The notes: generated by a model from the letters alone, not told the origin. A stretch of 52,575 nucleotides of DNA from Methanobacteriota archaeon (GCA_030605385.1 JAUWIL010000001.1:1-52575), one strand, 5' to 3'; counted from the first letter of the stretch, positions 2,832 through 40,966 are shown. Numbers and translations: made by a program.

Positions 2832-3314
2832 ATGCCATACACAGTTTTTCTAAGCCATTGCACGAGTCCCGAGGATATGAAATATGTGAATTGGTTCGAT
2901 TCTACACTTAGAAATCAATGTATTGGGTGCTATGTTGCTGAATGGTATCGAGAGCCAAACAACCTTATAACAGACAAAATAAAAAACGCAATTAATGATA
3001 GCCAATGCGCTCTAGTATTATGGACGAAAAAAGGAAGAGGATCCCAATTCGTCAATCAAGAAGTAGGTTATGCTGAAGATAAAAAACTAATAATACCTCT
3101 TGTAGAAAAGGGAGTTCCATTAGGAGGGTTCCTTTATGGAAGGGATTGTATTGAATTTGAAAGAAACAATCCAACAGGAGCATTAAATAGTACCGTTGAA
3201 TATATCAATCAACTTAAGCTTGCCAAAGAGCAACAGGATATGGCAACGGGCATGGTTACTCTTCTCATTAGCCTTTTTACACTCGGAGGTCTACTTGCTG
3301 CAGCATCAAGGTAA
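2832..3314 (+). CDS. TIR-like domain protein with C-terminal transmembrane helix
   Basis: The N-terminus YTVFLSHCTSPED, then SQCALVLWTKKG...FVNQEVGYA...KLIIPLV, matches the TIR/DUF1863 layout (strand-SH start, conserved W/E helix). The last ~25 aa (GMVTLLISLFTLGGLLAAA) are hydrophobic. GGAGGTGA RBS lies 8 nt upstream. Confidence 0.6.
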   Translation: MPYTVFLSHCTSPEDMKYVNWFDSTLRNQCIGCYVAEWYREPNNLITDKIKNAINDSQCALVLWTKKGRGSQFVNQEVGYAEDKKLIIPLVEKGVPLGGFLYGRDCIEFERNNPTGALNSTVEYINQLKLAKEQQDMATGMVTLLISLFTLGGLLAAASR

Positions 3315-3326
3315 GAAACCTTCTTC

Positions 3327-3593
3327 CTAATACTTATTTTTACAGTATTGCTCTATTTGGTTCAACATCCCCTCGCTACCCGCAACGACCTTAATGTCTC
3401 GCAAGTCCTCCACTATCTTTTCAAAGACCTTGCATTTTCCTTTGAGGTGGGCGAGAGGGTGAAGATAAAAATCGACCCGGAGGGAGAAAGACTGATCGTT
3501 GAGAAACGGTACTCGTTTTGTCTCTCTTTTGTCTCTCTGCACTCTATTAAAGATTGTCAGAGGGTGCGACTCAGATAAAGTTAACTTTGTCAT
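3327..3593 (-). CDS. Hypothetical protein, last gene of a four-gene minus-strand operon
   Basis: ATG start with a GAGG RBS. It overlaps the stop of the upstream gene by 23 nt. No recognisable domain. Confidence 0.4.
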   Translation of the reverse strand: MTKLTLSESHPLTIFNRVQRDKRETKRVPFLNDQSFSLRVDFYLHPLAHLKGKCKVFEKIVEDLRDIKVVAGSEGMLNQIEQYCKNKY

Positions 3594-4401
3594 CTTTTAC
3601 CGCCTCTAGTTTATCCTCCCATATGTTATACTGGGTCATGTATTTCTCCCTCCTCTCGGCTAATCTTGTATCTAATTGAGTGGATTGTACGAACTCCTCT
3701 ATTTCGTTTGCCATCCTTCTTATCGTATCTATATCGCTTTTTATTTCCTCGCATTCCCTTATTTCCAATAGTTCTTTCTCGAATCTAGGAAAGATATCTT
3801 TAATGTAAATATGGCTATGTTTTTCCCCCAATATTGATCTTGTTAGTTTTGGGACGCCATCTCTTTTTAACCATTGTTTGCCATCTTTCATTCCAAATTC
3901 CGCTTCAAATTTGGGGATGTATCGTTCAAGTTCCTCGGAAGTCTCTATCCACCCTTCAACTTTTTCTTTGATATCCTTTTCTACTTCTCCTAGGTTAGAG
4001 TTATATTCTCCAACCTGTTTTCGGTATTCTGCTACGTCCTCAACCAGCTCCTTATGTCTTTTAATAAAATCTTTTTCAGCACCCGTATCGCCTTTTAAAC
4101 TCGGCCCCCAATATCTTAAAGAATCTATATTCCCACTCTTTATTTCAGATATAGTTTCCCCATTCATATATAGAGTTCTCATGATGGGGTCTATTATCTT
4201 GGCTATCGCGATTACTACACTGTCTCTTTCTCTGTCTTTACGTAGTTCATCTACCTGCTCACTTACCTTTTTGACACACACCCAAGTTATTATTGCTAAG
4301 AGTGCTGTTGCAACTGCAGTGACTGCTGCTGCGAGATTATTTGTTATTCCCTCTACCGCCATCACTACTATTTCTTCTGCTACCATTACCACTGTTTGCA
4401 A
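3571..4401 (-). CDS. Membrane-anchored helical/coiled-coil protein, unknown function
   Basis: N-terminal hydrophobic helix (AAAVTAVATALLAIITWVCV), followed by about 230 aa rich in E/K with heptad-like character. No known catalytic motif seen. Confidence 0.55.
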   Translation of the reverse strand: MQTVVMVAEEIVVMAVEGITNNLAAAVTAVATALLAIITWVCVKKVSEQVDELRKDRERDSVVIAIAKIIDPIMRTLYMNGETISEIKSGNIDSLRYWGPSLKGDTGAEKDFIKRHKELVEDVAEYRKQVGEYNSNLGEVEKDIKEKVEGWIETSEELERYIPKFEAEFGMKDGKQWLKRDGVPKLTRSILGEKHSHIYIKDIFPRFEKELLEIRECEEIKSDIDTIRRMANEIEEFVQSTQLDTRLAERREKYMTQYNIWEDKLEAVKDDKVNFI

Positions 4402-4461
4402 CCCTCCTATCTATAACAGGAACAGTTGTCAGCCAAATGAAAGGGCTGAACGTCTAAACTC

Positions 4462-4977
4462 CTAGTTCCTCCCTCTCTCTTTTGCAATAGCTTCTTGTAT
4501 CATTCTTTTAACCCTATCTTCATCCTGATTAATATCATCTTCATTGAACCACAGAACCTTCCACCCCCTCTCATTTAGTGCGTTCTCCTTCCCCGCATCT
4601 CTTTCTTTTGCATGCCAGTAGTCAGCGCCAGGCTCTATAGCAACTTTTTCGTTTACAAATGCGAAGTCGATCCAATATCTTGAAACATTGTACTGCTTTT
4701 CGTAATCCTCATGTTCTTTGAAGCACAGTTCGTTTAGATATTGCTCAGTCCTTTTTTCCAAGTCTGTGTCTTTTTTTGATGGCGGCACTACTTCTCGTTC
4801 AAAACGAACTTCATCTACTACAAAATTTAGTTCACAGTCTTGACAAGTTACTATGAAAGGAGGCTTCTGCTTAAGATAAAGGTTAAAGATGTTATAATAT
4901 CTCATACATTTTGGACATTTTGTCCACAGGTTCGTCCCACCGCCTATGTACGCAATACTTTTCATCATCTCTACCAT
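4462..4977 (-). CDS. Zinc-ribbon plus DUF559 (Vsr-like endonuclease fold) protein
   Basis: CPKC...CQDC zinc ribbon at the N-terminus. The C-terminus YWIDFAFVNEKVAIEPGADYWH...RDAGKENALNERGWKVLWFNEDDI matches the DUF559 pattern (Y.vDF...IE.DG..H...D..R...L...G..vlRf). Confidence 0.6.
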   Translation of the reverse strand: MVEMMKSIAYIGGGTNLWTKCPKCMRYYNIFNLYLKQKPPFIVTCQDCELNFVVDEVRFEREVVPPSKKDTDLEKRTEQYLNELCFKEHEDYEKQYNVSRYWIDFAFVNEKVAIEPGADYWHAKERDAGKENALNERGWKVLWFNEDDINQDEDRVKRMIQEAIAKERGRN

Positions 4978-4978
4978 A

Positions 4979-5521
4979 TTACCGCAGCTCCAACAATTCT
5001 ATCCCATATTTTTCCAATGTGGACAGCAACTCTGGATCTCTCTGCTTGCAGATTATCAGCTTCTGTATCTCGTTGACAGGATAGTTTTCTTTAACAAGAA
5101 CTTCGTAACTCAGCACTTGCCCGATTGCTTCGAAATTCAGTTTATCTTTGATTTCCGCTAAAACAATATTCTTATCCTTTATCATGTTAAGGAATCCTCT
5201 TTCAATATCTTCATCAGGAGACTTAGATCTCTTCCTGAATTTCACTATTCTTACATTATAAGAATCAGGAGTTTGAGCGCCAGTTTTTCCTTCAGGAATA
5301 AATATAGCATCAACTCTTTTTATTTCAGTTGACACGGTCTCACTCTCAAACACAGGTTTAACATGTACTTCTGCATAAATAGTTCCCCTAATTTCAGGAT
5401 CTTCTAACATCTTTTTATAATATTTATGCAACAATATGTCTTCTTTCCCCTTTGTCTTATTAGGTGGCCAAGGATCAGTATATGTTCCCATCACCAGGCC
5501 TACTGCTGACTTTTTAGCCAT
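4979..5521 (-). CDS. Putative PD-(D/E)xK nuclease-fold protein
   Basis: ORF 4979..5563. Start set to the ATG at 5521, which has a GGTGAT RBS 6 nt upstream. VDAIFIP ... VLAEIKDK gives a D...E-x-K arrangement. One nt separates its stop from the next gene's start. Confidence 0.45.
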   Translation of the reverse strand: MAKKSAVGLVMGTYTDPWPPNKTKGKEDILLHKYYKKMLEDPEIRGTIYAEVHVKPVFESETVSTEIKRVDAIFIPEGKTGAQTPDSYNVRIVKFRKRSKSPDEDIERGFLNMIKDKNIVLAEIKDKLNFEAIGQVLSYEVLVKENYPVNEIQKLIICKQRDPELLSTLEKYGIELLELR

Positions 5522-5625
5522 GTTCTTATCACCTTGCCATACTAACTTAACTATCAGGTGCAACCAACTTAAATGTACTTCTAGACATTTCTATACGCTT
5601 TCATGCTCCCATCAGAATAACAGCT

Positions 5626-5665
5626 CACGTTATGTTTATGTGTGAGTGATAGCATAAGAATAATG
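5626..5665 (+). promoter_or_regulatory. Copy 2 of the same motif, in the spacer between the minus-strand operon and the PIN gene
   Basis: CACGTTATGTTTATGTGTGAGTGATAGCATAAGAATAATG. The first 23 nt are identical to copy 1. Confidence 0.4.
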
Positions 5666-5822
5666 ATAGCTTTGATCTCAGGAAGATTGAAGTTCAAGCA
5701 TGAAGGTGTGTAAGCAAAATAGATTTCGTATGTCGTACCAAGATGATAGAATATATGGCATTAATGTCTGGTATGCCTAAGTTAGGCGACACACATATAT
5801 GTGAAGTAAACACGTAGGGATT

Positions 5823-6293
5823 ATGATGAAACGGAAGTTTAGAGTATACATAGACACGTCGGTCATCGGGGGATATTTAGACGAGGAGTTTAAAGATGCT
5901 TCAACGATGCTTGTTGGAAGATTTAAGAGAGGGGAGCTTGGAGCAGTAATCTCAGAGATCACCAAACTTGAATTGAAAAAAGCACCCAGCGATGTGCAGG
6001 GTGTGCTTAAAGAAATACCAGAAGAAAATATAGAGTATGTTGAACTAACCGATGAAGCAACAACCTTGGCTAAGGGATACGTATCTGACGGTGTATTGGA
6101 TGAAAACAAAATTGCAGATGCACAGCATATAGCCATCGCTACAGTTCATAATGTAGATCTGATTGTGAGTTGGAATTTTAAACACATAGTCAACATTAAT
6201 AAAATCAGAGGCTTCAATGCGGTAAACTTGAAAATGGGCTATCCACTAATAGATATAAGAAGCCCTCAGGAGGTGATATCCTATGAAGAATAA
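5823..6293 (+). CDS. PIN-domain protein (VapC-like toxin)
   Basis: YIDTSVIGG (first acidic residue), ISEITKLE, ADAQHIAIA and the SWNFKH C-terminal motif follow the PIN-domain spacing. Confidence 0.6.
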   Translation: MMKRKFRVYIDTSVIGGYLDEEFKDASTMLVGRFKRGELGAVISEITKLELKKAPSDVQGVLKEIPEENIEYVELTDEATTLAKGYVSDGVLDENKIADAQHIAIATVHNVDLIVSWNFKHIVNINKIRGFNAVNLKMGYPLIDIRSPQEVISYEE

Positions 6294-6414
6294 AAAATTT
6301 GATGCAGTGAAAATGATGAGGGAGATAAGGGACGAATTAAGTAAAAAATTTATACACATGACTTTTGAAGAGCAGAAAAAGTTCATCAAGAAAAGTCTAG
6401 AGCAGACAGCATAG
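6283..6414 (+). CDS. Small 43-aa protein overlapping the PIN gene stop, possible cognate antitoxin or partner
   Basis: ATG at 6283 overlaps the PIN gene 3' end by 11 nt. MKNKKFDAVKMMREIRDELSKKFIHMTFEEQKKFIKKSLEQTA is helical and charged. Below the ORF-track cutoff. Confidence 0.35.
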   Translation: MKNKKFDAVKMMREIRDELSKKFIHMTFEEQKKFIKKSLEQTA

Positions 6415-6482
6415 GGGGCATACACGTCGCATGAAAGGCACCGGTAGCATATATGGGCATGTGAAGGGCAGGATAATGATTT

Positions 6483-6881
6483 ATGTCACAAAAAGGTTGG
6501 TATTATAATCCCCCCAAGCCAAAGGTTCCTGAGGTAGAAAAAAACAGGATTAAGAGCATTTGTGGTGAGTATATTAGGACTGTTTTAAAACCTAAACATA
6601 TAATCCCCAGCCCCTCACATAAAGAGTATTATCATATTGAAGATATGTTTACAAAATGGTGGCGGAATTACTTTTATTTTTATGCCAAATACCATTATAC
6701 AGATCCAAATGCAATTAAGGAGTTTTTAGATCATGGCTTTGCCAGATTGGAATATGTTAATGAACACAGGTTCAATTTATCGTATATGAGACATACAGGA
6801 CAATGGTGGGAGGTTTTTTCAGAATTATCATTGGAAGAATGCTTAGACACCATCGAAGAAATGCCACATTTTAATCCATAG
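6483..6881 (+). CDS. Hypothetical protein, DUF3024-like
   Basis: Clean 132-aa ORF. The W/Y-rich core and the C-terminal GFARLEY...W.L.YMRHTGQWWEV...L.E.L..IEE resemble DUF3024 as I recall it. Not verified. Confidence 0.4.
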   Translation: MSQKGWYYNPPKPKVPEVEKNRIKSICGEYIRTVLKPKHIIPSPSHKEYYHIEDMFTKWWRNYFYFYAKYHYTDPNAIKEFLDHGFARLEYVNEHRFNLSYMRHTGQWWEVFSELSLEECLDTIEEMPHFNP

Positions 6882-7053
6882 AAAAGGCTAAATAAAGCAT
6901 ACTATTTACATGAAAGCTAACGGACTCGCATAACAGGTGGGCATGCGGTTCGCTGCATTCACCAAAATGCTCGGCTTGATCACATAATGCTCTCCTCTTC
7001 GTATTGAATATTACCGATGTTACAGGCTGTTGTAATAAGTGTAATGTTGGTGA

Positions 7054-7200
7054 ACTATAACGGTTAACCCGTTTAAGCCGGGATCTGGTTTGTATCCGCC
7101 TTATTTTGCTGGTCGTGTGAGGGAGATTGAAGTCTGGGCAGGTGGATGTATTACGCAATTGGCTTCATGGCACTTCTTTGAAAATGATGATTGTACTTAA
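7054..7200 (+). pseudogene. N-terminal fragment of an archaeal-type AAA/STAND ATPase (no start codon, truncated after ~45 aa)
   Basis: The frame reads TITVNPFKPGSGLYPPYFAGRVREIEVW... The NPF.PG....PP.F.GRE.E motif is the usual N-terminus of the archaeal ATPase family. There is no P-loop downstream and the frame stops at 7198-7200. Confidence 0.3.
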
Positions 7201-7277
7201 ACTCATGTTGTTCAATTGGGTTTAATCGAGAAACATTTAAACACAATTATATTCATTATTATAACTGAGGTGATAAA

Positions 7278-7421
7278 ATGGAAAAAAGACAAGTATGTTT
7301 TACCATTGAGGAGGATATAGTGAAAAACATGGAAGAACTAAGGGACAAAACCGGCGTGCCAGTGAGCAAGCAAATTGAGTTAGCTCTGAAAGGATACAAA
7401 ATCGAAAAAGTAGAGCAATAG
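7278..7421 (+). CDS. Ribbon-helix-helix small protein, 47 aa
   Basis: MEKRQVCFTIEEDIVKNMEELRDKTGVPVSKQIELALKGYKIEKVEQ shows the strand-helix-helix pattern. GAGGTGA RBS upstream. Confidence 0.5.
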   Translation: MEKRQVCFTIEEDIVKNMEELRDKTGVPVSKQIELALKGYKIEKVEQ

Positions 7422-7518
7422 TAAATTTCGGAGCATTTTAATGACGTATATTGAATTGAGTTTGGGTATCGTTATTGGTATTATTTTATCTTTAGTAGTG
7501 GATGTCGCCACAATACGC

Positions 7519-7863
7519 CTATATCTTAACCGATATCGTATCTTGATCTTCAAGAAAAACCTCTGCCACTGAATGGTTCGCCAGATCCAGTGCGTCTGCA
7601 ATTGCTTTTGGTATGGTTATCATGTATGAGTTGCCTCTTTTCGAGATTTTCACTTTCTCGTGTTTCTTAGCTTGCAGGAACAGGTAGGCTTTTTCCAGCG
7701 CTCCTGGGCTGAGCAGCTCATACTTGCACTTGGCGCATTTCCAACCACGTACTTTCAATCCTTCCACATCGATCTCGGTGCGCTCACACAGGTTGTTGCA
7801 CTGAGGGCACTTTAATCCCCCCTCTTCAAGATTCTTTAGTTCATCTATTTTTGATTCCGACAT
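7519..7863 (-). CDS. Antitoxin-like protein: YgiT/MqsA-type zinc ribbon fused to an AbrB/SpoVT domain
   Basis: CPQC...CAKC zinc ribbon. The C-terminal VKISKRGNSYMITIPKAIADALDL...VAEVFLEDQDTISVKI is a SpoVT/AbrB swapped-hairpin signature. Confidence 0.6.
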   Translation of the reverse strand: MSESKIDELKNLEEGGLKCPQCNNLCERTEIDVEGLKVRGWKCAKCKYELLSPGALEKAYLFLQAKKHEKVKISKRGNSYMITIPKAIADALDLANHSVAEVFLEDQDTISVKI

Positions 7864-8110
7864 GTTTTATTAACCACACTTCCTCGTCCAGAGAGTATGA
7901 GTAGCTGGGCACGAGCTTGGTGAAGACGATCTGATTCTTCCGATCGATTGCCCGGCCAACCTCTCCCTTCGTCATTCTTGCATCCTCGTAGTCGTATCCA
8001 TCCTCAATTATCTCCTGTAGTTTCCAGGGCGAGATGTCATGCCTCACCATATCTTTCAGCGCGTCTTTGCTGGGAATGCATAGTTTGCTTCTGAAGCGAA
8101 CATCAAACAT
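7841..8110 (-). CDS. Small toxin-like protein (possibly DUF4258/RelE-fold), upstream partner of the AbrB antitoxin
   Basis: Overlaps the antitoxin gene by 23 nt. The ATG at 8110 gives MFDVRF... An in-frame TTG at 8158 would add 16 aa encoded by the family A repeat. Family assignment is tentative. Confidence 0.45.
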   Translation of the reverse strand: MFDVRFRSKLCIPSKDALKDMVRHDISPWKLQEIIEDGYDYEDARMTKGEVGRAIDRKNQIVFTKLVPSYSYSLDEEVWLIKHVGIKNR

Positions 8111-8162
8111 GTCTGAAAACCTTTGGTTTTCATACTGTTGCGGAACTGCGTTCCGCAAACAT
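8105..8162 (+). repeat. Family A double-hairpin unit, solo copy
   Basis: AAACATGT CTGAAAACC TTT GGTTTTCA TACTGTT GCGGAAC TGC GTTCCGC AAACAT. Confidence 0.85.
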
Positions 8163-8317
8163 CTCTGGCTCCTGTATAAACAGTATGTTTAAACACCCTA
8201 TTAAAACTTTTTGTTACCAACGTTGTTTTTATCTTCCTTATACTTCAACCGCTATGTTATTCTTTCTCAAGCAACCTTGCTGTATTATAAAGTACAACTT
8301 TGTAATACAGAGAAAAA

Positions 8318-8669
8318 TCATTTGATTTTTCTCGCTGTTTCCTCGCTTATCTCTTGCTGCTCGCTGGTTGCGCCGGTCTCTATTCTGCGCTCCCTGGCCA
8401 TCCTGATCACGTCATACACGCTCTTGTTCAGCATGACTGCAGCATGTCTAAAACACTGCGTGTTTTATACGGTTGAAAAACTACGTTTTTCAAACACTGC
8501 TGAGAGATATCCTGCCGCGCGCGTATAAGTCCATCACGTACTCTGCAGCCCCCATGTAAAAAAGCTGTCTCATTGTAGTGCTTTTGTCCACGTACATCTC
8601 CCCGGTGCGCAGCTCCACCAGTGGAAGAATGTCCTCCGGTATTCGTAGTGGATATGATACCATGCCCAT
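8318..8669 (-). pseudogene. UPF0175-family (antitoxin-like) gene split by a family A hairpin unit
   Basis: The 5' part, 8669..8490, encodes MGMVSYPLRIPEDILPLVEL...AAEYVMDLYARGRISLSSV and stops inside the repeat. The 3' part, 8443..8318, encodes AAVMLNKSVYDVIRMARERRIE... Joining the two flanks gives an in-frame ...GRISLSSAAVMLNKS... typical of UPF0175. Confidence 0.6.
8444..8497 (+). mobile_element. Family A double-hairpin unit inserted inside a coding sequence
   Basis: CATGT CTAAAACAC TGC GTGTTTTAT ACGGTT GAAAAAC TAC GTTTTTC AAACA, flanked by CA on both sides. Confidence 0.75.
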
Positions 8670-8799
8670 TTACATCACCTCCATCAGTTTATTTTTTGCT
8701 TTTAGATAACTTGACCTGTTTACGTACACCCTGACGTTTTCCAGCGCCGCATACAAAGTATGTGAAGCGCGCAAAGAACGAAACGCCACTTCCATCCAG

Positions 8800-9840: not shown

Positions 9841-9895
9841 CTTGCGGAGCAAAGCTCCGCAACCGTATAAAACACGCAGTGTTTTATACATGTAT
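9841..9895 (-). repeat. Family A double-hairpin unit, solo copy in inverted orientation
   Basis: The reverse complement reads ACATGT ATAAAACAC TGC GTGTTTTAT ACGGTT GCGGAGC TTT GCTCCGC AAG. Confidence 0.8.
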
Positions 9896-10744: not shown

Positions 10745-10869
10745 GTCGAACTTTCAGTTCGACTGTCTTGCGAAAGATCTGATTTCGCAAAGTCTTGCAA
10801 AACATAGTTTTGCGGGATATCTGAAGGCTCTGCCTTCAGAGATATCTTGCAGAACGAAGTTTCGCGGGA
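10745..10869 (+). repeat. Family B hairpin array (5 hairpins of 19-27 nt)
   Basis: GTCGAACT/AGTTCGAC. Then TCTTGCGAAA..TTTCGCAAAG, TCTTGCAAAAC..GTTTTGCGGGA, TATCTGAAGG..CCTTCAGAGATA and TCTTGCAGAAC..GTTTCGCGGGA. Confidence 0.85.
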
Positions 10870-13705: not shown

Positions 13706-14404
13706 TCAAATCTCCACCTTCAGATCCTGCGAAACGGAGTTTCGCGGGACAGGCGAAAGCTTTGCTTTCGACAAGGTCCTGCGAATGTCAAGCTCGTTAT
13801 GTACTACTATCATGCAGTGGTCCACATGCAGTGATTTTTGTCCGACGCTTACATTTCTTGCACAGGCATCTGCAAGGAGCCGCTCATATTCTTCACCAAG
13901 TCCCATATGGTCGCCAAGCACGAAAATCAGTTTATCACCCATCTCAATTTCTCTTATCCACTCGCCTGTTTCAACAAGATATATTATATCTGTGCCGTCA
14001 CCGCACCCTTCCAGCACATCCTTCATGTCCCCTTTACGTATGTATACGCCAGGAGTTGACAATATTTCATGCTCGGTGATGTTCTGCCTTCCAAGCGCCT
14101 TGCTTATCAGCGAGGCTGCGCTTCTTTCATCCGGGCTGAGATATCTCAGCTCACTGCCTTCAAAGCGTATCAGGATCGGGGGATTTGGCTCTCCGAGCAG
14201 CAGAAGCCAGAGTCTTGTATCTCTCCGTATATCGTGCGACAGAAAGAACGCTGAATTGACGCACCTGCATACTATATCCATCCTGCCGGCTGAACCTGGG
14301 AGGTCTTTCAGGCTGAAACCGCCGGTCGTAGTAGCTGTGCTGCTAACCACCAGAAATTCCCTTCTAACGCCCTCTCCCCTAACACCCATGTTGATCTCAC
14401 TCAC
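13706..14404 (-). CDS. trmY: tRNA (pseudouridine54-N1)-methyltransferase TrmY (SPOUT)
   Basis: GRMDIVCRCVNSAFFLSHDIRRD...LSPDERSAASLI matches TrmY/DUF358. The last ~28 codons are encoded by family B repeat sequence. Confidence 0.7.
   Translation of the reverse strand: MSEINMGVRGEGVRREFLVVSSTATTTGGFSLKDLPGSAGRMDIVCRCVNSAFFLSHDIRRDTRLWLLLLGEPNPPILIRFEGSELRYLSPDERSAASLISKALGRQNITEHEILSTPGVYIRKGDMKDVLEGCGDGTDIIYLVETGEWIREIEMGDKLIFVLGDHMGLGEEYERLLADACARNVSVGQKSLHVDHCMIVVHNELDIRRTLSKAKLSPVPRNSVSQDLKVEI
13725..13790 (+). repeat. Family B hairpin array (2 to 3 hairpins) overlapping the trmY 3' end
   Basis: TCCTGCGAAAC GGA GTTTCGCGGGA, then CAGGCGAAAGC TTT GCTTTCGACAAG, then a truncated GTCCTGCGAA. 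Confidence 0.8.
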
Positions 14405-22585: not shown

Positions 22586-22680
22586 GTGAAGGGTCCCCCT
22601 AATGCGCTCTAAAATTGTGTGCAAGCAGTAATATAATGCTTGCCATTTCTTGTCTGCCAATAGCTCCTAATCAGCCGCCA

Positions 22681-30495: not shown

Positions 30496-30651
30496 TCTCC
30501 AACAATCTATAAAAAACGCATTCGAAGTAAGTAGGTGCCTCAGAACTCATAGGGTCTGTCATCACCCTTTAAGGGGCTCAGCTATTATCTTCTTCATCAT
30601 CGGCACCTGTAGAAATATCGGGAGTCAAGTGCCTTAATAGTTCTTACCACA

Positions 30652-30767
30652 TCTTGCGAAGCACAGCTTCGCGGGATATCTGAAGGGTGCGCCTTCAGAA
30701 ATATCTTGCGAAATCGGAGATTTCGCGAGACAACCGAATACGAAGTATTCGTTAAGTCTTGCGGGGG
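30652..30767 (+). repeat. Family B hairpin array (4 hairpins plus a truncated fifth), abutting the pyrF stop
   Basis: TCTTGCGAAGC..GCTTCGCGGGA, TATCTGAAGG..CCTTCAGAAATA, TCTTGCGAAATC..GATTTCGCGAGA, CAACCGAATAC..GTATTCGTTAAG, then TCTTGCGGGGG. Confidence 0.85.
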
Positions 30768-31427
30768 CTACCTGCTTCTACCTATCTCGTCTATGATTCG
30801 TTCGGCAGCCACCCTTGGATTATCAGATTTGTATATGCTGCGCCCCACTATGATATGATTTGCACCGTTAATGATGGTTTCGCGCACACTCCCACCCTGC
30901 GCACCTACGCCCGGGCACATAATCTCCATATTAGGTCCGACTATGTCACGTACAACGGCGATGCGCTCGGGCCGTGTCGCAGGCGCTATTATTCCGTCTG
31001 CGTTGCAATCCACTGCCATGTGCACCATGCGCTCCATGCTTGGCTGTAGAAACTCAACCGCACCTGGATGACTCATTTCCACTACCACATATACCATACC
31101 ATTATGCTCGCGAGCGCTGTCCACACACGTCATGAGGCTGTCTCTACCTGTGAATGCGTGCGTTATGATTGCACCGGCTCCTGCCTGAAATATCTGCTGA
31201 CATATCAGGCGATTGGTGTTAGGTATGTCAGCCACCTTCAGGTCTGCTATGACGTGTATGCGTTTGCTGAGTTCACTTATGACGGTTTTACCAGTCGATA
31301 ATATTAGTGGATACCCCACTTTCACCGCGTCAATCAAACCCTGGAGCTGATCGGTTATGCCTAGCGCTTCATCTCCAGAGGTTACATCGAGCGCTAACAC
31401 AAGTCCCGTGCTATTAGGTATTCTCAT
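30768..31427 (-). CDS. pyrF: Orotidine 5'-phosphate decarboxylase
   Basis: LVLALD, ADLKVADIPNT, IVGRSI. Confidence 0.9.
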   Translation of the reverse strand: MRIPNSTGLVLALDVTSGDEALGITDQLQGLIDAVKVGYPLILSTGKTVISELSKRIHVIADLKVADIPNTNRLICQQIFQAGAGAIITHAFTGRDSLMTCVDSAREHNGMVYVVVEMSHPGAVEFLQPSMERMVHMAVDCNADGIIAPATRPERIAVVRDIVGPNMEIMCPGVGAQGGSVRETIINGANHIIVGRSIYKSDNPRVAAERIIDEIGRSR

Positions 31428-31460
31428 TTTCCTTCCTCATCTAATTCATATTTTTTACAT

Positions 31461-31838
31461 GTATGAAATGCGAAGCATGTCCGAAAACCTTAGGTTTTCG
31501 TACTGTTGCGGAACTTCGTTCCGCAAACATGTCTGGAAGCGAAGCTTCCATACGGTTACAGAGCTCCGCTCTGTAAACATGTTTAAAAATCTTTGATTTT
31601 TAAACGGTTGAAAAACTACGTTTTTCAAACATGTCTAAAAGTGGAACTTTTAGACTGTTATGGAACTTTGTTCCATAAACATGTCCGAAAACCTTAGGTT
31701 TTCGTACTGTTGCGGAACTGCGTTCTGTAAACATGTATGAAAAGCTCTGCGTTTCATACGGTTATGGAGCTGTGCTCCATAAACATGTTTAAAAATCTTT
31801 GATTTTTAAACGGTTGCAAAACTACGTTTTGCAAACAT
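31461..31838 (+). repeat. Family A double-hairpin array: one truncated plus seven complete 50-52 nt units
   Basis: Units start at 31476, 31528, 31578, 31630, 31680, 31732 and 31784. Every junction reads AAACATGT. Confidence 0.9.
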
Positions 31839-31873
31839 TCCAATCTCTCACTTTTTACATTCCAATCTCTCAC
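31836..31873. repeat. Direct repeat CATTCCAATCTCTCAC x2 separated by TTTTTA (part of a 22-nt tandem duplication)
   Basis: Read directly. It covers the dys stop codon. Confidence 0.9.
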
Positions 31874-32834
31874 GGGTAGCAGCAATTATTATCGGCAGCG
31901 CTATGGTGATGTCCGCATATACCGTTACGTAGCTGCCGCTCCCCTTCACCTTACCCCACGACTTGGCCTCATCGAGTGTGGCACCTGAGAGTCCGCCTGT
32001 CTCTGGACGGTCCATTGTAATCTGTATACTATAATCCATGCCCCCTCTCGGTATGGCTATCATACTCTGAAGTATGTAGTTCTTCGGAAGACCGCCGCCA
32101 AGTATGAATGCTCCAAGGCTCCTTGCCTCATAGCATATGTCCATGAACTCCTTCATATCCTCAAAAACGTCAACGTTTAAACTTAGGGTCTGTTTGTGAA
32201 GCCATGCCTGGAGCCCTATTGCCGAATCGGCTATGCCGGGGCAGTATATGGGCACTTCCATCTCATAGCATGCCCCGAGGATCGAGTTCTTGCAGTCTAT
32301 ATTTTCACCCAGTGCGGTTATCAGCTCACGTATGCTAAGGGTTCTGCCCTCCAGACCTGCAAAGGCGTTCAGCATGTGCTCCTCAAAGGTCGTGAAGTGT
32401 TCTTCGGGCAGAAAAACATCGAATATGCGGTTTATCTGCTTATCCCTAAGTTCAATGTCATTTACCGCCGCAGTGCCGTGATAATGATGTCCGCCAAGTG
32501 ATTCTATGATGTCGTGCACGATGTTCGCACCAGTGGTAACCAGTACATCCACATACCCATCATACACCATGTCAGATAGTATCCTGCGCATCCCTGCCGG
32601 TACCAGCGCTCCTGCCAGCCCGAGAAACTTGGTGGTATCGCTGAGCATCATCATCTCCATTATATCCACAGCTTCAGCGATTCTTCCTGCGCCGAATGCG
32701 CATCCGCCCAGCTCATTGACAAGTTCGTTAACGGTCATTGGGGTCCTGATCTGCGCGTGACGTATGATCAGACTGCTGTCGAGCATACCTTCAGGGCCGC
32801 CGCCAGGATTTCGTTCATCTCGCTCTTCGTTCAT
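31848..32834 (-). CDS. dys: Deoxyhypusine synthase
   Basis: Start set to MNEERDERNP at the ATG at 32834. The upstream extension looks non-coding. Conserved regions: TGANIVHD, GGGLPKNY, and the SWGK lysine region. Confidence 0.85.
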   Translation of the reverse strand: MNEERDERNPGGGPEGMLDSSLIIRHAQIRTPMTVNELVNELGGCAFGAGRIAEAVDIMEMMMLSDTTKFLGLAGALVPAGMRRILSDMVYDGYVDVLVTTGANIVHDIIESLGGHHYHGTAAVNDIELRDKQINRIFDVFLPEEHFTTFEEHMLNAFAGLEGRTLSIRELITALGENIDCKNSILGACYEMEVPIYCPGIADSAIGLQAWLHKQTLSLNVDVFEDMKEFMDICYEARSLGAFILGGGLPKNYILQSMIAIPRGGMDYSIQITMDRPETGGLSGATLDEAKSWGKVKGSGSYVTVYADITIALPIIIAATRERLECKK

Positions 32835-33059
32835 AGTTGTAGTTAGGATTATTGCACTATGTATAATATGAATATTGCGGAAACAGAGTTTTCGCCGGAA
32901 ATTGTGTATGCAGTTTGATGTCGGTTGCATCAAGGGAGACGCGATTGAGGGATATAACCAAATATTCATAAATACTTAAGTGGATGACGATTATACCTCT
33001 ACCAGAAAAAACATGCCCCTCTAACATTCTCTCTAACACCTACTGTATGTGGTGCTGTT

Positions 33060-34037
33060 ATGCGTGACATAGCTGATATCATAATGGGGAAGGTTGATGT
33101 TGCATCATACTCAACCCGCCTGCTGATAGGTTTGCCTCTAACCGTACTGATGCTGGCGCTCATCATCATAGGCGCCACATATGCCGACTGCGGTGCACCC
33201 GTGCAGATGGGGGTTGATTTTAAGGGCGGCACGATTATCACACTTAACACCAGTGAAGGAACTGCTGCACTCGCTGAGAAGTTTTCCTCATATCCAGATG
33301 TGTCCATACGCGAGGGTGGGGGGCGCATGATGGTTCATCTCGGTCCAATGAACGAGAAGTTGATGGATACTCTCGTAGAAAGTGTGAACCATGATTACCC
33401 CGGCAGTGAGATTCGTACTATGGGCGAGGTATTCGGCCATGAACTTCAGTGGCAGGCAGTTCAGGCAGTTGCCTATGCATTTATCGGAATGGTAATTGTT
33501 ATCTTCATAATATTCCGCACCATGGTGCCGTCATTCTCGGTTGTGTTTTCGGCAATGTCAGACATGATAATAGCTGTGGCAATTATGGATGCGGTCGGGA
33601 TGCAGATGTCTCTGGCAACTGTGGCTGCACTTCTAATGATCATAGGATATTCTGTGGACAGTAATATTCTTCTCAGCACGCGTATGCTGCGGACAGGGAA
33701 AGGGAGAGTTGAGGACAAGATCAGGGGTGCTATGCGCACCGGACTTATGATGTCAACTACCACGATGTCGGCTATTCTCGTAATGCTAGTAGTGTCAAAC
33801 TCGTTCTATCTTATCCCCCCATACACAAGTATTCCAGTACTCCGGGACATATCTCTTGTGCTGCTTTTCGGCATGTGTGCCGATATGATGAATACATGGT
33901 TGCTTAACGCGGGTATTATGCGCATGTACCTCGAGTACCTCGAGCGCATGAAAAAGAAACGAAGTAAAAAGAAGAGGACGAAAAGCACCAGAAGTAAGGG
34001 AGATAAGAGTGGTAAAAGAGGGGGCGGCCGCAGATGA
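33060..34037 (+). CDS. secF: Protein-export membrane protein SecF
   Basis: GVDFKGGT motif, six-TM C-terminal half (IGYSVDSNIL), and a K/R-rich tail. Confidence 0.85.
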   Translation: MRDIADIIMGKVDVASYSTRLLIGLPLTVLMLALIIIGATYADCGAPVQMGVDFKGGTIITLNTSEGTAALAEKFSSYPDVSIREGGGRMMVHLGPMNEKLMDTLVESVNHDYPGSEIRTMGEVFGHELQWQAVQAVAYAFIGMVIVIFIIFRTMVPSFSVVFSAMSDMIIAVAIMDAVGMQMSLATVAALLMIIGYSVDSNILLSTRMLRTGKGRVEDKIRGAMRTGLMMSTTTMSAILVMLVVSNSFYLIPPYTSIPVLRDISLVLLFGMCADMMNTWLLNAGIMRMYLEYLERMKKKRSKKKRTKSTRSKGDKSGKRGGGRR

Positions 34038-39967: not shown

Positions 39968-39995
39968 AATATGGGTGTAGCAATATGGGTGTAGC
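39968..39995. repeat. Perfect tandem duplication, 2 x 14 nt (AATATGGGTGTAGC) covering the cofE start codon
   Basis: Read directly. Confidence 0.9.
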
Positions 39996-40743
39996 CGAGA
40001 TTCGCTTATTTGCTCCTGAGGAAGTCCCTCTGATAAAAGAGGGGGACGACATAGTCGATATCATACTCGACGCAGTGGAACTCAAGAGTCATGATATAGT
40101 AGTAATTGCATCAACCATAATGTCCAAGTCTGAGGGTAGAGCTATTTCCCTCGATAGTATCAGACCGTGCGCCAGAGCGGTTGAGCTTGCATCGAACCTG
40201 AACGAAGACCCGAGATTCATGGAGCTTGTTCTGCAGAACAGCCGCAGAATAATAGTCGAGCGCCCCATACTTCTGACCGAAATGCCGAACGGGTACATAT
40301 GCATCAAGGCAGGTATAGACAGGTCCAACGTCAAGGATGGTAAGGCACTACTGCTCCCCGCTGACCCTGATAAGAGCGCGAAAGGTATACACGACCGGAT
40401 TCTCGAGCGCACCGGAAAGAGGGTGAGCATAATAATATCAGACACATCAGGCAGAGCCTTCCGCATGGGTCAGACCGCAGTAGCCGTAGGGTGTGCGGGC
40501 ATTGGTCCGCTGCTGAACTGGGTCGGAATGAAGGACCTTTACGGGCACGAGCTTGAAATAACAGAGGAAGCCGTGGCTGATGAACTTGCAGGCGCATCAA
40601 ACCTGCTCACAGGCGAGGGCAACGGCGGTAAACCCATAGTAGTGGTGCGCGGATTAGACCTGTACTCGGATTCACATGGTGTTGCGGCACTACACCGCAA
40701 AGACGAGGATGATGTAATAAAGAGGGCTTTGCTGCATGTTTAA
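39985..40743 (+). CDS. cofE: Coenzyme F420-0:L-glutamate ligase
   Basis: IKEGDDIVDII..., IKAGIDRSN, IISDTSGRAFRMGQTAVAVG. The stop codon lies inside the first family A repeat unit. Confidence 0.85.
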   Translation: MGVAEIRLFAPEEVPLIKEGDDIVDIILDAVELKSHDIVVIASTIMSKSEGRAISLDSIRPCARAVELASNLNEDPRFMELVLQNSRRIIVERPILLTEMPNGYICIKAGIDRSNVKDGKALLLPADPDKSAKGIHDRILERTGKRVSIIISDTSGRAFRMGQTAVAVGCAGIGPLLNWVGMKDLYGHELEITEEAVADELAGASNLLTGEGNGGKPIVVVRGLDLYSDSHGVAALHRKDEDDVIKRALLHV

Positions 40744-40966
40744 AACGCAAGGCATTTTAGACGGTTGTGAAATCTCTGATTTCACAAACATGTCTGAAAA
40801 AGCAACGCTTTTTCATACGGTTACAGAATCTTCGATTCTGCAAACATGTTTAAAATGCAAGGCATGTTCGAAAACCTTAGGTTTTCGTACTGTTGTAGAA
40901 CGTAGTTCTACAAACATGCCTAAAACACTACGTGTTTTATGCTGTTGCAAAACGTAGTTTTGCAAA
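40735..40966 (+). repeat. Family A double-hairpin array: four complete units and one truncated unit
   Basis: Units start at 40735, 40789, 40845 (18-nt stub), 40863 and 40915. Confidence 0.9.

Follow-up and report, generated by a model that had tools for sequence, protein, structure and literature searches.

REP units of bacteria are thought to be recognized as folded single-stranded DNA (PMC2817692, PMC3733652). They carry a GTAG or CGTC tetranucleotide tag at one end of the palindrome (PMC3733652) and, when clustered, the units alternate in orientation (PMC2817692). The double-hairpin repeats that we describe here were found in an archaeal contig of 52,575 nt (JAUWIL010000001.1, referred to as the window), and they share with REP/BIME elements their condition of short palindromic units present in many copies in intergenic spacers and at the 3' ends of genes, as well as the formation of mosaic arrays with defined linkers that grow and shrink. 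Size and copy number are also those of the bacterial elements, i.e., palindromes of 20–40 nt with many extragenic copies. However, there is no GTAG or CGTC tag, the hairpins being preceded by ACATGT or ACNGTT, and the alternating orientation is absent, both arrays of the window running head to tail on one strand. In addition, the stems vary widely within the genome, whereas the REPs of one genome share their sequence. The archaeal host also sets the family apart from REP/BIME, and a scan of 30 window proteins revealed no RAYT (Y1 HUH) gene.

The PATEs derived from IS200/IS605 have a hairpin near each end and a short insertion site of fixed sequence, and they are roughly 100 nt long or more. 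The archaeal unit is similar in that hairpin A is located 3–6 nt from its left end and hairpin B 3–5 nt from its right end, in the lack of a long terminal inverted repeat, and probably in being inserted next to a short fixed sequence, in this case RCA^, with no target duplication apart from a possible one of the shared CA. It differs by its length (52 nt) and by a right end that is identical to the target sequence, leading to head-to-tail arrays, and neither TnpA nor TnpB was detected among the 30 scanned proteins. The third likeness is to the mitochondrial double-hairpin elements of Allomyces, sponges and yeasts, which also have two adjacent hairpins per unit and are found inserted in spacers, occasionally within genes, and also in tandem. 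Those of Allomyces are reported to come without flanking duplication and to have no known mechanism (PMC2800124, citing Paquin et al. 2000). These elements are organellar and unrelated in sequence, and those of sponges have conserved stems and variable loops, while in the archaeal unit it is the linkers that are invariant and the stems that vary with compensation.

Other described systems are more distant. The regular alternation of constant and variable segments recalls a CRISPR, but the constant segments are only 6–8 nt long (direct repeats of at least 23 nt would be expected), the variable parts are self-complementary hairpins, there is no leader, and copies are also found singly, one of them inside a gene. 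No cas domains were found in the scanned window genes, and the lone match to a CRISPR repeat in Rfam had E = 4.5, far below threshold. DDE-derived MITEs have a target-site duplication of fixed length and a terminal match of ~10 nt or more, against 3–5 nt in this case, where moreover no duplication extends beyond CA; a review describes Methanobacterium thermoautotrophicum as being without apparent MITEs (PMC10969869). C/D-box small RNAs were considered and dropped because neither box is found, type III antitoxin or TIGR-type arrays because the units differ too much from one another and lack a partner gene, NrpR operators (GGAA-N6-TTCC) because of the spacing, and integron attC sites because core sites are missing; replication-origin repeats were dropped as well. 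By its behavior the family most resembles the REP/BIME, the IS200/IS605-derived hairpin elements and the mitochondrial double-hairpin elements. It is a small double-hairpin family with traces of insertion, and the literature searched for such arrays in methanogens contained no description of it.

The locus in which these repeats are most informative is the junction between dys and pyrF, two genes of the minus strand (region 30600–33200) that are separated by 420 nt. Its features are the following.

30768–31427, minus strand: pyrF, coding for orotidine-5'-phosphate decarboxylase (OMP decarboxylase), from the ORF list (P0121; PF00215)
31424–31460, minus strand: vestigial tail of dys (..CKKYELDEEGK*), now the leader of pyrF, the sole open frame of three
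31452–31460, unstranded: TTTTTACAT, the 9 nt adjoining the array on its left, which belong to the interrupted 22-nt unit
31461–31838, plus strand: array of double-hairpin repeats, 378 nt (31460–31837 in the equivalent register TGT...ACA)
31839–31851, unstranded: TCCAATCTCTCAC, the 13 nt of that interrupted copy adjoining the array on its right, which give the present dys stop (minus-strand TGA, 31848–31850)
31852–31873, unstranded: intact 22-nt unit, TTTTTACATTCCAATCTCTCAC, which codes for the final dys codons and keeps the uninterrupted ("empty") insertion site
31848–32834, minus strand: dys, coding for deoxyhypusine synthase, from the ORF list (PF01916), with its stop codon now at 31848–31850 and a product ending ...ATRERLECKK

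The database entry of this protein for the 52,575-nt contig, P0001 (312 aa), is identical to dys over its whole length. The sequence TTTTTACAT is found on the plus strand of the whole window only at 31452 and 31852 (one reverse-complement copy is located at 8554), CATTCCAATCTCTCAC only at 31836 and 31858 of the same strand, and the full 22-mer just once, at 31852. In this 22-mer (31852–31873), TTTTTACAT is fused directly to TCCAATCTCTCAC, i.e., the two sequences that flank the array today. The coordinates and repeat positions of the original prediction were all exact to the base, and so was its reconstruction by the removal of 400 nt (31461–31860), which comprise the 378 nt of the array (31461–31838) and 22 nt more (31839–31860). 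As had been claimed, their excision gives back to dys an end that overlaps the next gene: the present terminus ...ATRERLECKK* becomes ...ATRERLECKKYELDEEGK, the reconstructed protein running ...RERLECKKYELDEEGK, and the new TGA overlaps the ATG of pyrF as ATGA. The vestigial tail carries GAGGAAGG before this ATG (31425–31427), its own TGA being located at 31424–31426.

The presence of an intact copy next to the interrupted one reveals the order of events. Since 22 is 1 modulo 3, the second copy is read by dys (31839–31851) out of frame and opens with a TGA, by which the duplication shortened dys by eight codons, in full agreement with what had been proposed. To judge from its fused halves, the intact 22-mer is a fossil empty site that has been kept beside the filled one. 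Such a copy can only derive from an uninterrupted site, indicating that the duplication predates the array. The idea that the array had been inserted into the end of a gene has to be abandoned in this respect: with the duplication coming first, what the array entered was a piece of the former dys tail that was no longer coding, 10 nt downstream of the new stop. The duplication was also considered as the target duplication of a transposition event and rejected, the array being located inside one of the copies and not between the two. Filled and empty sites side by side at one locus are a rare situation and, because the locus has preserved its own empty site, the order of the events that split a coupled gene pair can be read from a single sequence.

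The fit had been regarded as unlikely to be due to chance, and this holds by virtue of the fossil site and of the bases that precede the insertion, the frame alone being a weaker argument. Along the 37 nt that precede the ATG of pyrF only one of the three frames is open, namely that entered by dys. A coincidental fit of this kind can be roughly estimated, rather than computed, at ~0.15 (about 1 in 6), i.e., ~1/3 multiplied by ~0.45 for an AT-rich stretch to stay open. The ACAT found at the left edge of the array is uninformative, because RCAT precedes every copy of the family. What carries information is the additional TTTTT, found before only 3 of the 533 ACAT sites in both strands of the window, two of the three being the copies of TTTTTACAT at this locus (p ~0.002–0.006). 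The number of units in the array could be mis-assembled, as this is a short-read MAG, although both boundaries are independent of the unit count. That the 400 nt are derived DNA and the 420-nt gap between dys and pyrF secondary is supported by these data.

Compact junctions had been expected in relatives, and they were found at the level of orthologous junctions. The gene pyrF follows dys after 2 nt in the MAG GCA_965642175, 3 nt in a Methanoperedens MAG and 4 nt in Methanosarcina mazei, and an ANME-2 MAG has an ATGA overlap between them (CCATGAAA). The repeat was absent from all four of these dys-pyrF loci. From these examples we infer that a compact junction is typical of Methanosarcinales. 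The closest relatives in the collections are only 66% (dys) and 60% (pyrF) identical, and look-ups of the exact sequences of the window pyrF and dys retrieved no other contig, the protein clusters having one member each. The nearest dys orthologues (66%) end ...RERLEGK or ...RERLERK, which is the length of the present protein, and have a JAB gene downstream instead of pyrF, also with an ATGA overlap. This indicates that the reconstructed tail of eight residues is lineage-specific; a dys tail of similar length is found elsewhere, ...RSRLGEKGRGTP in ANME-2. The original prediction had named, as evidence against itself, orthologues that consistently end at the present position, with a long spacer and no ATGA overlap before pyrF in any relative. 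The first part is what the closest dys orthologues show, while the dys-pyrF junctions of the relatives are compact or overlapping and repeat-free. With relatives at or below 66% (dys) and 60% (pyrF) identity, sequence and comparison together suggest that the ancestral junction was probably compact, with an ATGA overlap.

The array itself is made up of an 18-nt part-unit (31457–31474, flanking ACAT included) followed by seven units of 50–52 nt that start at 31475, 31527, 31577, 31629, 31679, 31731 and 31783. All of them follow the plan ACATGT-hairpin A-ACNGTT-hairpin B-AA, in which hairpin A has a stem of 7–9 bp and a loop of 3 nt, and hairpin B has 7 bp, or 9 with the TT/AA of the linkers. Folded as single-stranded DNA, the array forms 15 hairpins (z = −16.9 against shuffles). 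The whole window has 69 perfect hairpin calls versus 7.6 in shuffles, many of them being one hairpin counted at two loop sizes. A motif scan of the window gave 10 unit matches where 0.17 were expected, and a covariance model built from 14 units located five loci, so that hairpins of 17–25 nt are present at five loci in 52.5 kb, with one copy intragenic. Apart from the array between dys and pyrF these are:

8107–8158, plus strand: single unit with AAACAT on both flanks, adjoining a candidate ATG (8110–8108, minus strand)
8444–8495, plus strand: single unit in a UPF0175 gene, which it splits into the fragments 8490–8669 and 8318–8443 (minus strand)
9842–9893, minus strand: single unit between the ksgA stop and the nrpR start, found by the motif scan and the covariance model
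40734–40965, plus strand: second array, of four units and an 18-nt part-unit, found by the covariance model

The clearest case of insertion is that of the UPF0175 gene. Neither half of the split gene had a match in Pfam. After exact excision of the 52 nt (the registers 8443–8494 to 8445–8496 give the same product) a protein of 99 aa is obtained, with a score of 23.4 bits and an ungapped alignment across the junction; when the junction is changed by −1 or +2 residues the score falls to ~15 bits. Three homologues of the merged protein (99, 104 and 102 aa) are 61%, 52% and 45% identical over 99–100% of the query, and all three, full-length, belong to PF03683 and are gapless at the junction. Furthermore, the orthologous empty site was found in a metagenome contig as CTCAGCAGGGCAGCC, where the window has CTCAGCAG, the 52 nt and TGCTGCAG. 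By this comparison the 52-nt unit is demonstrably a discrete insertion in the UPF0175 gene. In the database, this antitoxin-like gene (8318–8669, minus strand) is represented by a truncated 59-aa N-terminal product alone (P0242), and the region 2832–8700, to which it belongs, is rich in defense and toxin-antitoxin genes (TIR-domain, DUF559/restriction-endonuclease-like, PIN, MazE/AbrB-like and UPF0175). The second array also affects a gene. Its first unit provides cofE (F420-0:gamma-glutamyl ligase, 39985–40743) with its last three codons and stop (40734–40743), by which the protein that now ends ...ALLHV* would end ...ALLQEKR* after excision. We have found, in methane-cycling archaea, repeats that are inserted next to genes or within them, provide new stop codons and accumulate in arrays, and the family could help to explain the evolution of spacers and gene ends in these genomes.

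The six independent sites have left junctions that read RCA^T in all cases (6/6), and all right ends are ...ACA. The array had been proposed to be inserted at CAT, and an insertion is indeed located there, although the junction is better written as ACA^T because CA alone is common to the six. The two sites whose empty state is known had a single CA or ACAT prior to insertion, and a 2-bp duplication of CA would look the same as none. The terminal inverted repeat is just 3–5 nt (TGT/ACA), and beyond the shared CA the target site is not duplicated. As the end of the unit is the sequence of its own insertion site, each insertion recreates the target, which results in head-to-tail arrays joined by ACATGT. 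All this describes a dispersed family of repeats that bears clear marks of former insertions and must have been mobile at some time.

Outside the window, a unit with identical linkers was present, among the matches listed, in a Methanophagales MAG (75 bits) and in many Methanobacterium genomes (44–62 bits), one of them a complete chromosome. The scan of the genome collection gave at least 43 stretches, over half of which were chance matches in bacteria. In Methanobacterium the unit is found as a module within longer arrays of mixed composition, with up to 11 hairpins, and the neighbors of these arrays, judging from their translations, are unrelated housekeeping genes with no conserved neighbor among them. 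At two orthologous loci from different Methanobacterium species (L034, 2300–3100, and L017, 1600–2500) the flanks are 81–91% identical, and the arrays differ by ~110 nt and by whole hairpin modules, with an identical last hairpin. The Methanophagales MAG SB_Co_68 (L020, 7240–7370) has a single unit between a gene stop and a putative tRNA gene of the opposite strand, with a GGTGGGATTCGAACCC motif. When metagenomes were scanned for two joined units, a single true match was obtained, Methanobacterium-like by its GC content of 33%. In viral contigs the unit pattern had six hits, none of which was confirmed by the covariance model.

Taken together, the 420-nt gap has most likely a secondary origin in at least three steps, from an ancestor with an ATGA overlap through a 22-nt duplication to the insertion of double-hairpin units that belong to a once mobile family. 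The ancestral dys would have ended ...RERLECKKYELDEEGK, with its TGA overlapping the pyrF ATG, as suggested by the sequence and the relatives. The tandem duplication of the 22 nt (TTTTTACATTCCAATCTCTCAC), which is directly visible, then shifted the frame to the TGA at the second copy, leaving a dys without its last eight codons, ending ...LECKK, and a spacer of ~43 nt before pyrF. The double-hairpin repeats entered this spacer at ACA^T. Our leading candidate for the agent is a transposase that recognizes hairpins in single-stranded DNA and acts in trans, like the TnpA of IS200/IS605 or a RAYT. The 52-nt unit (TGT-hairpin A-ACNGTT-hairpin B-AAACA) recreates the preferred site with its ...AAACA end, allowing units to pile up head to tail, and the array also grew by an internal duplication of ~204 nt, from units 1–3 to units 5–7. 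As a consequence, the translation of pyrF is expected to be uncoupled from that of dys, and the 15 hairpins, several of them with runs of T4–T5, now occupy a former operon junction.

A serious rival, though we judge it unlikely, is a copy-and-paste process that needs no dedicated transposase, i.e., microhomology-mediated template switching during replication. Hairpins would stall the fork, and the nascent strand would re-prime at an ACA or CAT elsewhere, copy one or several units and switch back. The junctions are what such a process would leave, sharing only 2–6 nt (CA, AACA, ACAT, AAACAT) with no real terminal inverted repeat and, as said, no target duplication beyond CA. By Pfam no transposase, integrase, recombinase or cas gene was found among 30 window proteins, which include most of the long ORFs, and this genome is unusually prone to duplications of the slippage type. 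There is also a composite of the 18-nt part-unit plus a full unit common to both arrays (~84% identity), as if copied from one to the other. This truncated unit (ACATGT-NNRAAATGC-RAR-GCAT) is found at 31457–31474 and 40844–40861, each time joined to a CGAAAACC-type unit, and suggests that either a unit was inserted at GCA^T within the arm of a hairpin or the two have a deletion in common, the composite being copied between the loci afterwards. However, template switching predicts ragged ends, and the copies share their ends TGT...ACA (50–56 nt), with the exception of the two 18-nt part-units. In addition, Methanobacterium and Methanophagales carry the same unit and linkers, which implies a shared recognition system or horizontal spread.

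Going beyond a secondary origin by insertion, one might think of an undescribed archaeal mobile system common to the Methanobacteriales, the Methanophagales and this Methanosarcinales-like lineage, although this is a speculative reading to which we give little credence at present. Its enzyme would read the linkers ACATGT, ACNGTT and AAACA alone on folded single-stranded DNA, leaving the stems free to change, and a fold-back step of copying or repair would keep the arms perfectly complementary. If true, an element ending in its own target would generate arrays at gene junctions and rewrite gene ends repeatedly.

The pairing of the stems bears on whether the unit acts as DNA or as RNA. Linkers are invariant, and the stems vary widely yet remain paired. 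In the 14 window units, 98.5% of the cells are paired and 12 of the 15 pairs have changes on both sides; extending the set to 27 matches (the window and 16 other loci) gives 99.2% paired cells with ~1% G-U. Units 3 and 7 differ at two positions only, which are the two members of one compensated pair. This very strong signal of covariation and folding, and the location of the arrays in spacers between co-directional genes, could be taken as an indication of a functional structured RNA (an mRNA stabilizer, processing signal, terminator or small-RNA array) kept by selection in a regulatory position. REP elements of bacteria do have secondary roles as signals of the stabilizer or terminator type. 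We consider this explanation improbable for several reasons. A G-U fraction of ~1% is far below what is expected for the helix of a functional RNA. When strands are matched against the ORF lists, the unit is opposite to the flanking genes at 3 of the 5 window loci. One copy destroys a gene (UPF0175), and the dys-pyrF junctions of the relatives work without an array. Rfam had no match in the whole window at the gathering score, nor any for the repeats even at E up to 10, the hits at that level being sub-threshold chance ones to microRNA-type hairpins. The nearly exclusive Watson-Crick pairs, the mixed orientation with respect to transcription and the absence from Rfam indicate a DNA-level element rather than a conserved RNA. 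The invariant linkers with free, perfectly paired stems point to a unit that is recognized or copied as a DNA fold rather than one that functions as RNA, and a design of this kind suggests a recombination system that reads structure. A secondary effect of the array on expression, acquired later, is possible.

Units from different loci are in some cases very similar (U1-W1 90%, U1-V3 87%, V4-W2 85%, U3-W2 83% and U6-W3 83%), while neighboring units within one array are only 58–69% identical. The higher similarity between loci than between neighbors indicates that the founding units were imported and not amplified on the spot. This makes very improbable the origin of the array in situ, through rounds of slippage or inverted duplication of local sequence with nothing imported, for which a part of the array does speak: units 1–3 are 92%, 73% and 96% identical to units 5–7 at a spacing of ~204 nt, which is local growth and reads as an internal segmental duplication of ~204 nt. 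For the founding units such an origin is contradicted, since the four basic unit types (58–69% identical among themselves) resemble one another no more than they do units elsewhere, 9 to 23 kb separate them from their best matches in the window (83–90% identity), and the family is present in other archaeal orders. The array holds four unrelated unit types. Two events had been proposed for this locus, a duplication and an insertion, and both took place. Four unrelated types plus the internal duplication imply more, and more than one event is needed, the insertion of a pre-built block being possible as well.

Perfect tandem duplications with a period of 11–22 nt number 13 in the window, that of 22 nt in dys included, against none in shuffles.

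3516, 13601, 21814, 22675, 29955, 31835, 35740, 38415, 39827, 39968, 44276, 44333 and 51593: perfect short tandem duplications, of ~2–3.5 copies

All 13 are located in spacers or on gene starts or stops and none is inside a gene. Their restriction to non-coding positions indicates that they are real and have been filtered by selection, rather than being assembly noise. Several of them rewrite a C-terminus or double a start codon; examples are the 17-nt duplication at 22675, by which the C-terminus of another gene has been rewritten, and that of 14 nt at 39968, which doubled the start codon of cofE. Their number suggests that the rate of slippage-type duplication is unusually high in this lineage, and the duplication in dys evidently belongs to this genome-wide class. 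Perfect short duplications at gene edges are a second, independent route for the remodeling of gene ends. That the array, the 22-nt duplication or both were produced by the assembly of repeats from short reads is the least credible explanation of all: the contig belongs to a MAG, and the assembly of like units in tandem is difficult, but the units differ at many positions and so anchor uniquely, random artifacts would mostly strike coding sequence while the 13 duplications avoid the interior of genes, and the family is found in independent assemblies that include the complete Methanobacterium chromosome.

The window contains a second, different family of double-hairpin repeats, with the plan TCTTGC-hairpin-GCGGGATA-TCTGAAGG..CCTTCAGA-RATA. 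It is located at 10766–10860 and 30652–30762, with a remnant at 13715–13775. One of its arrays starts within ~10 nt of the pyrF stop, which places hairpin arrays on both sides of pyrF.
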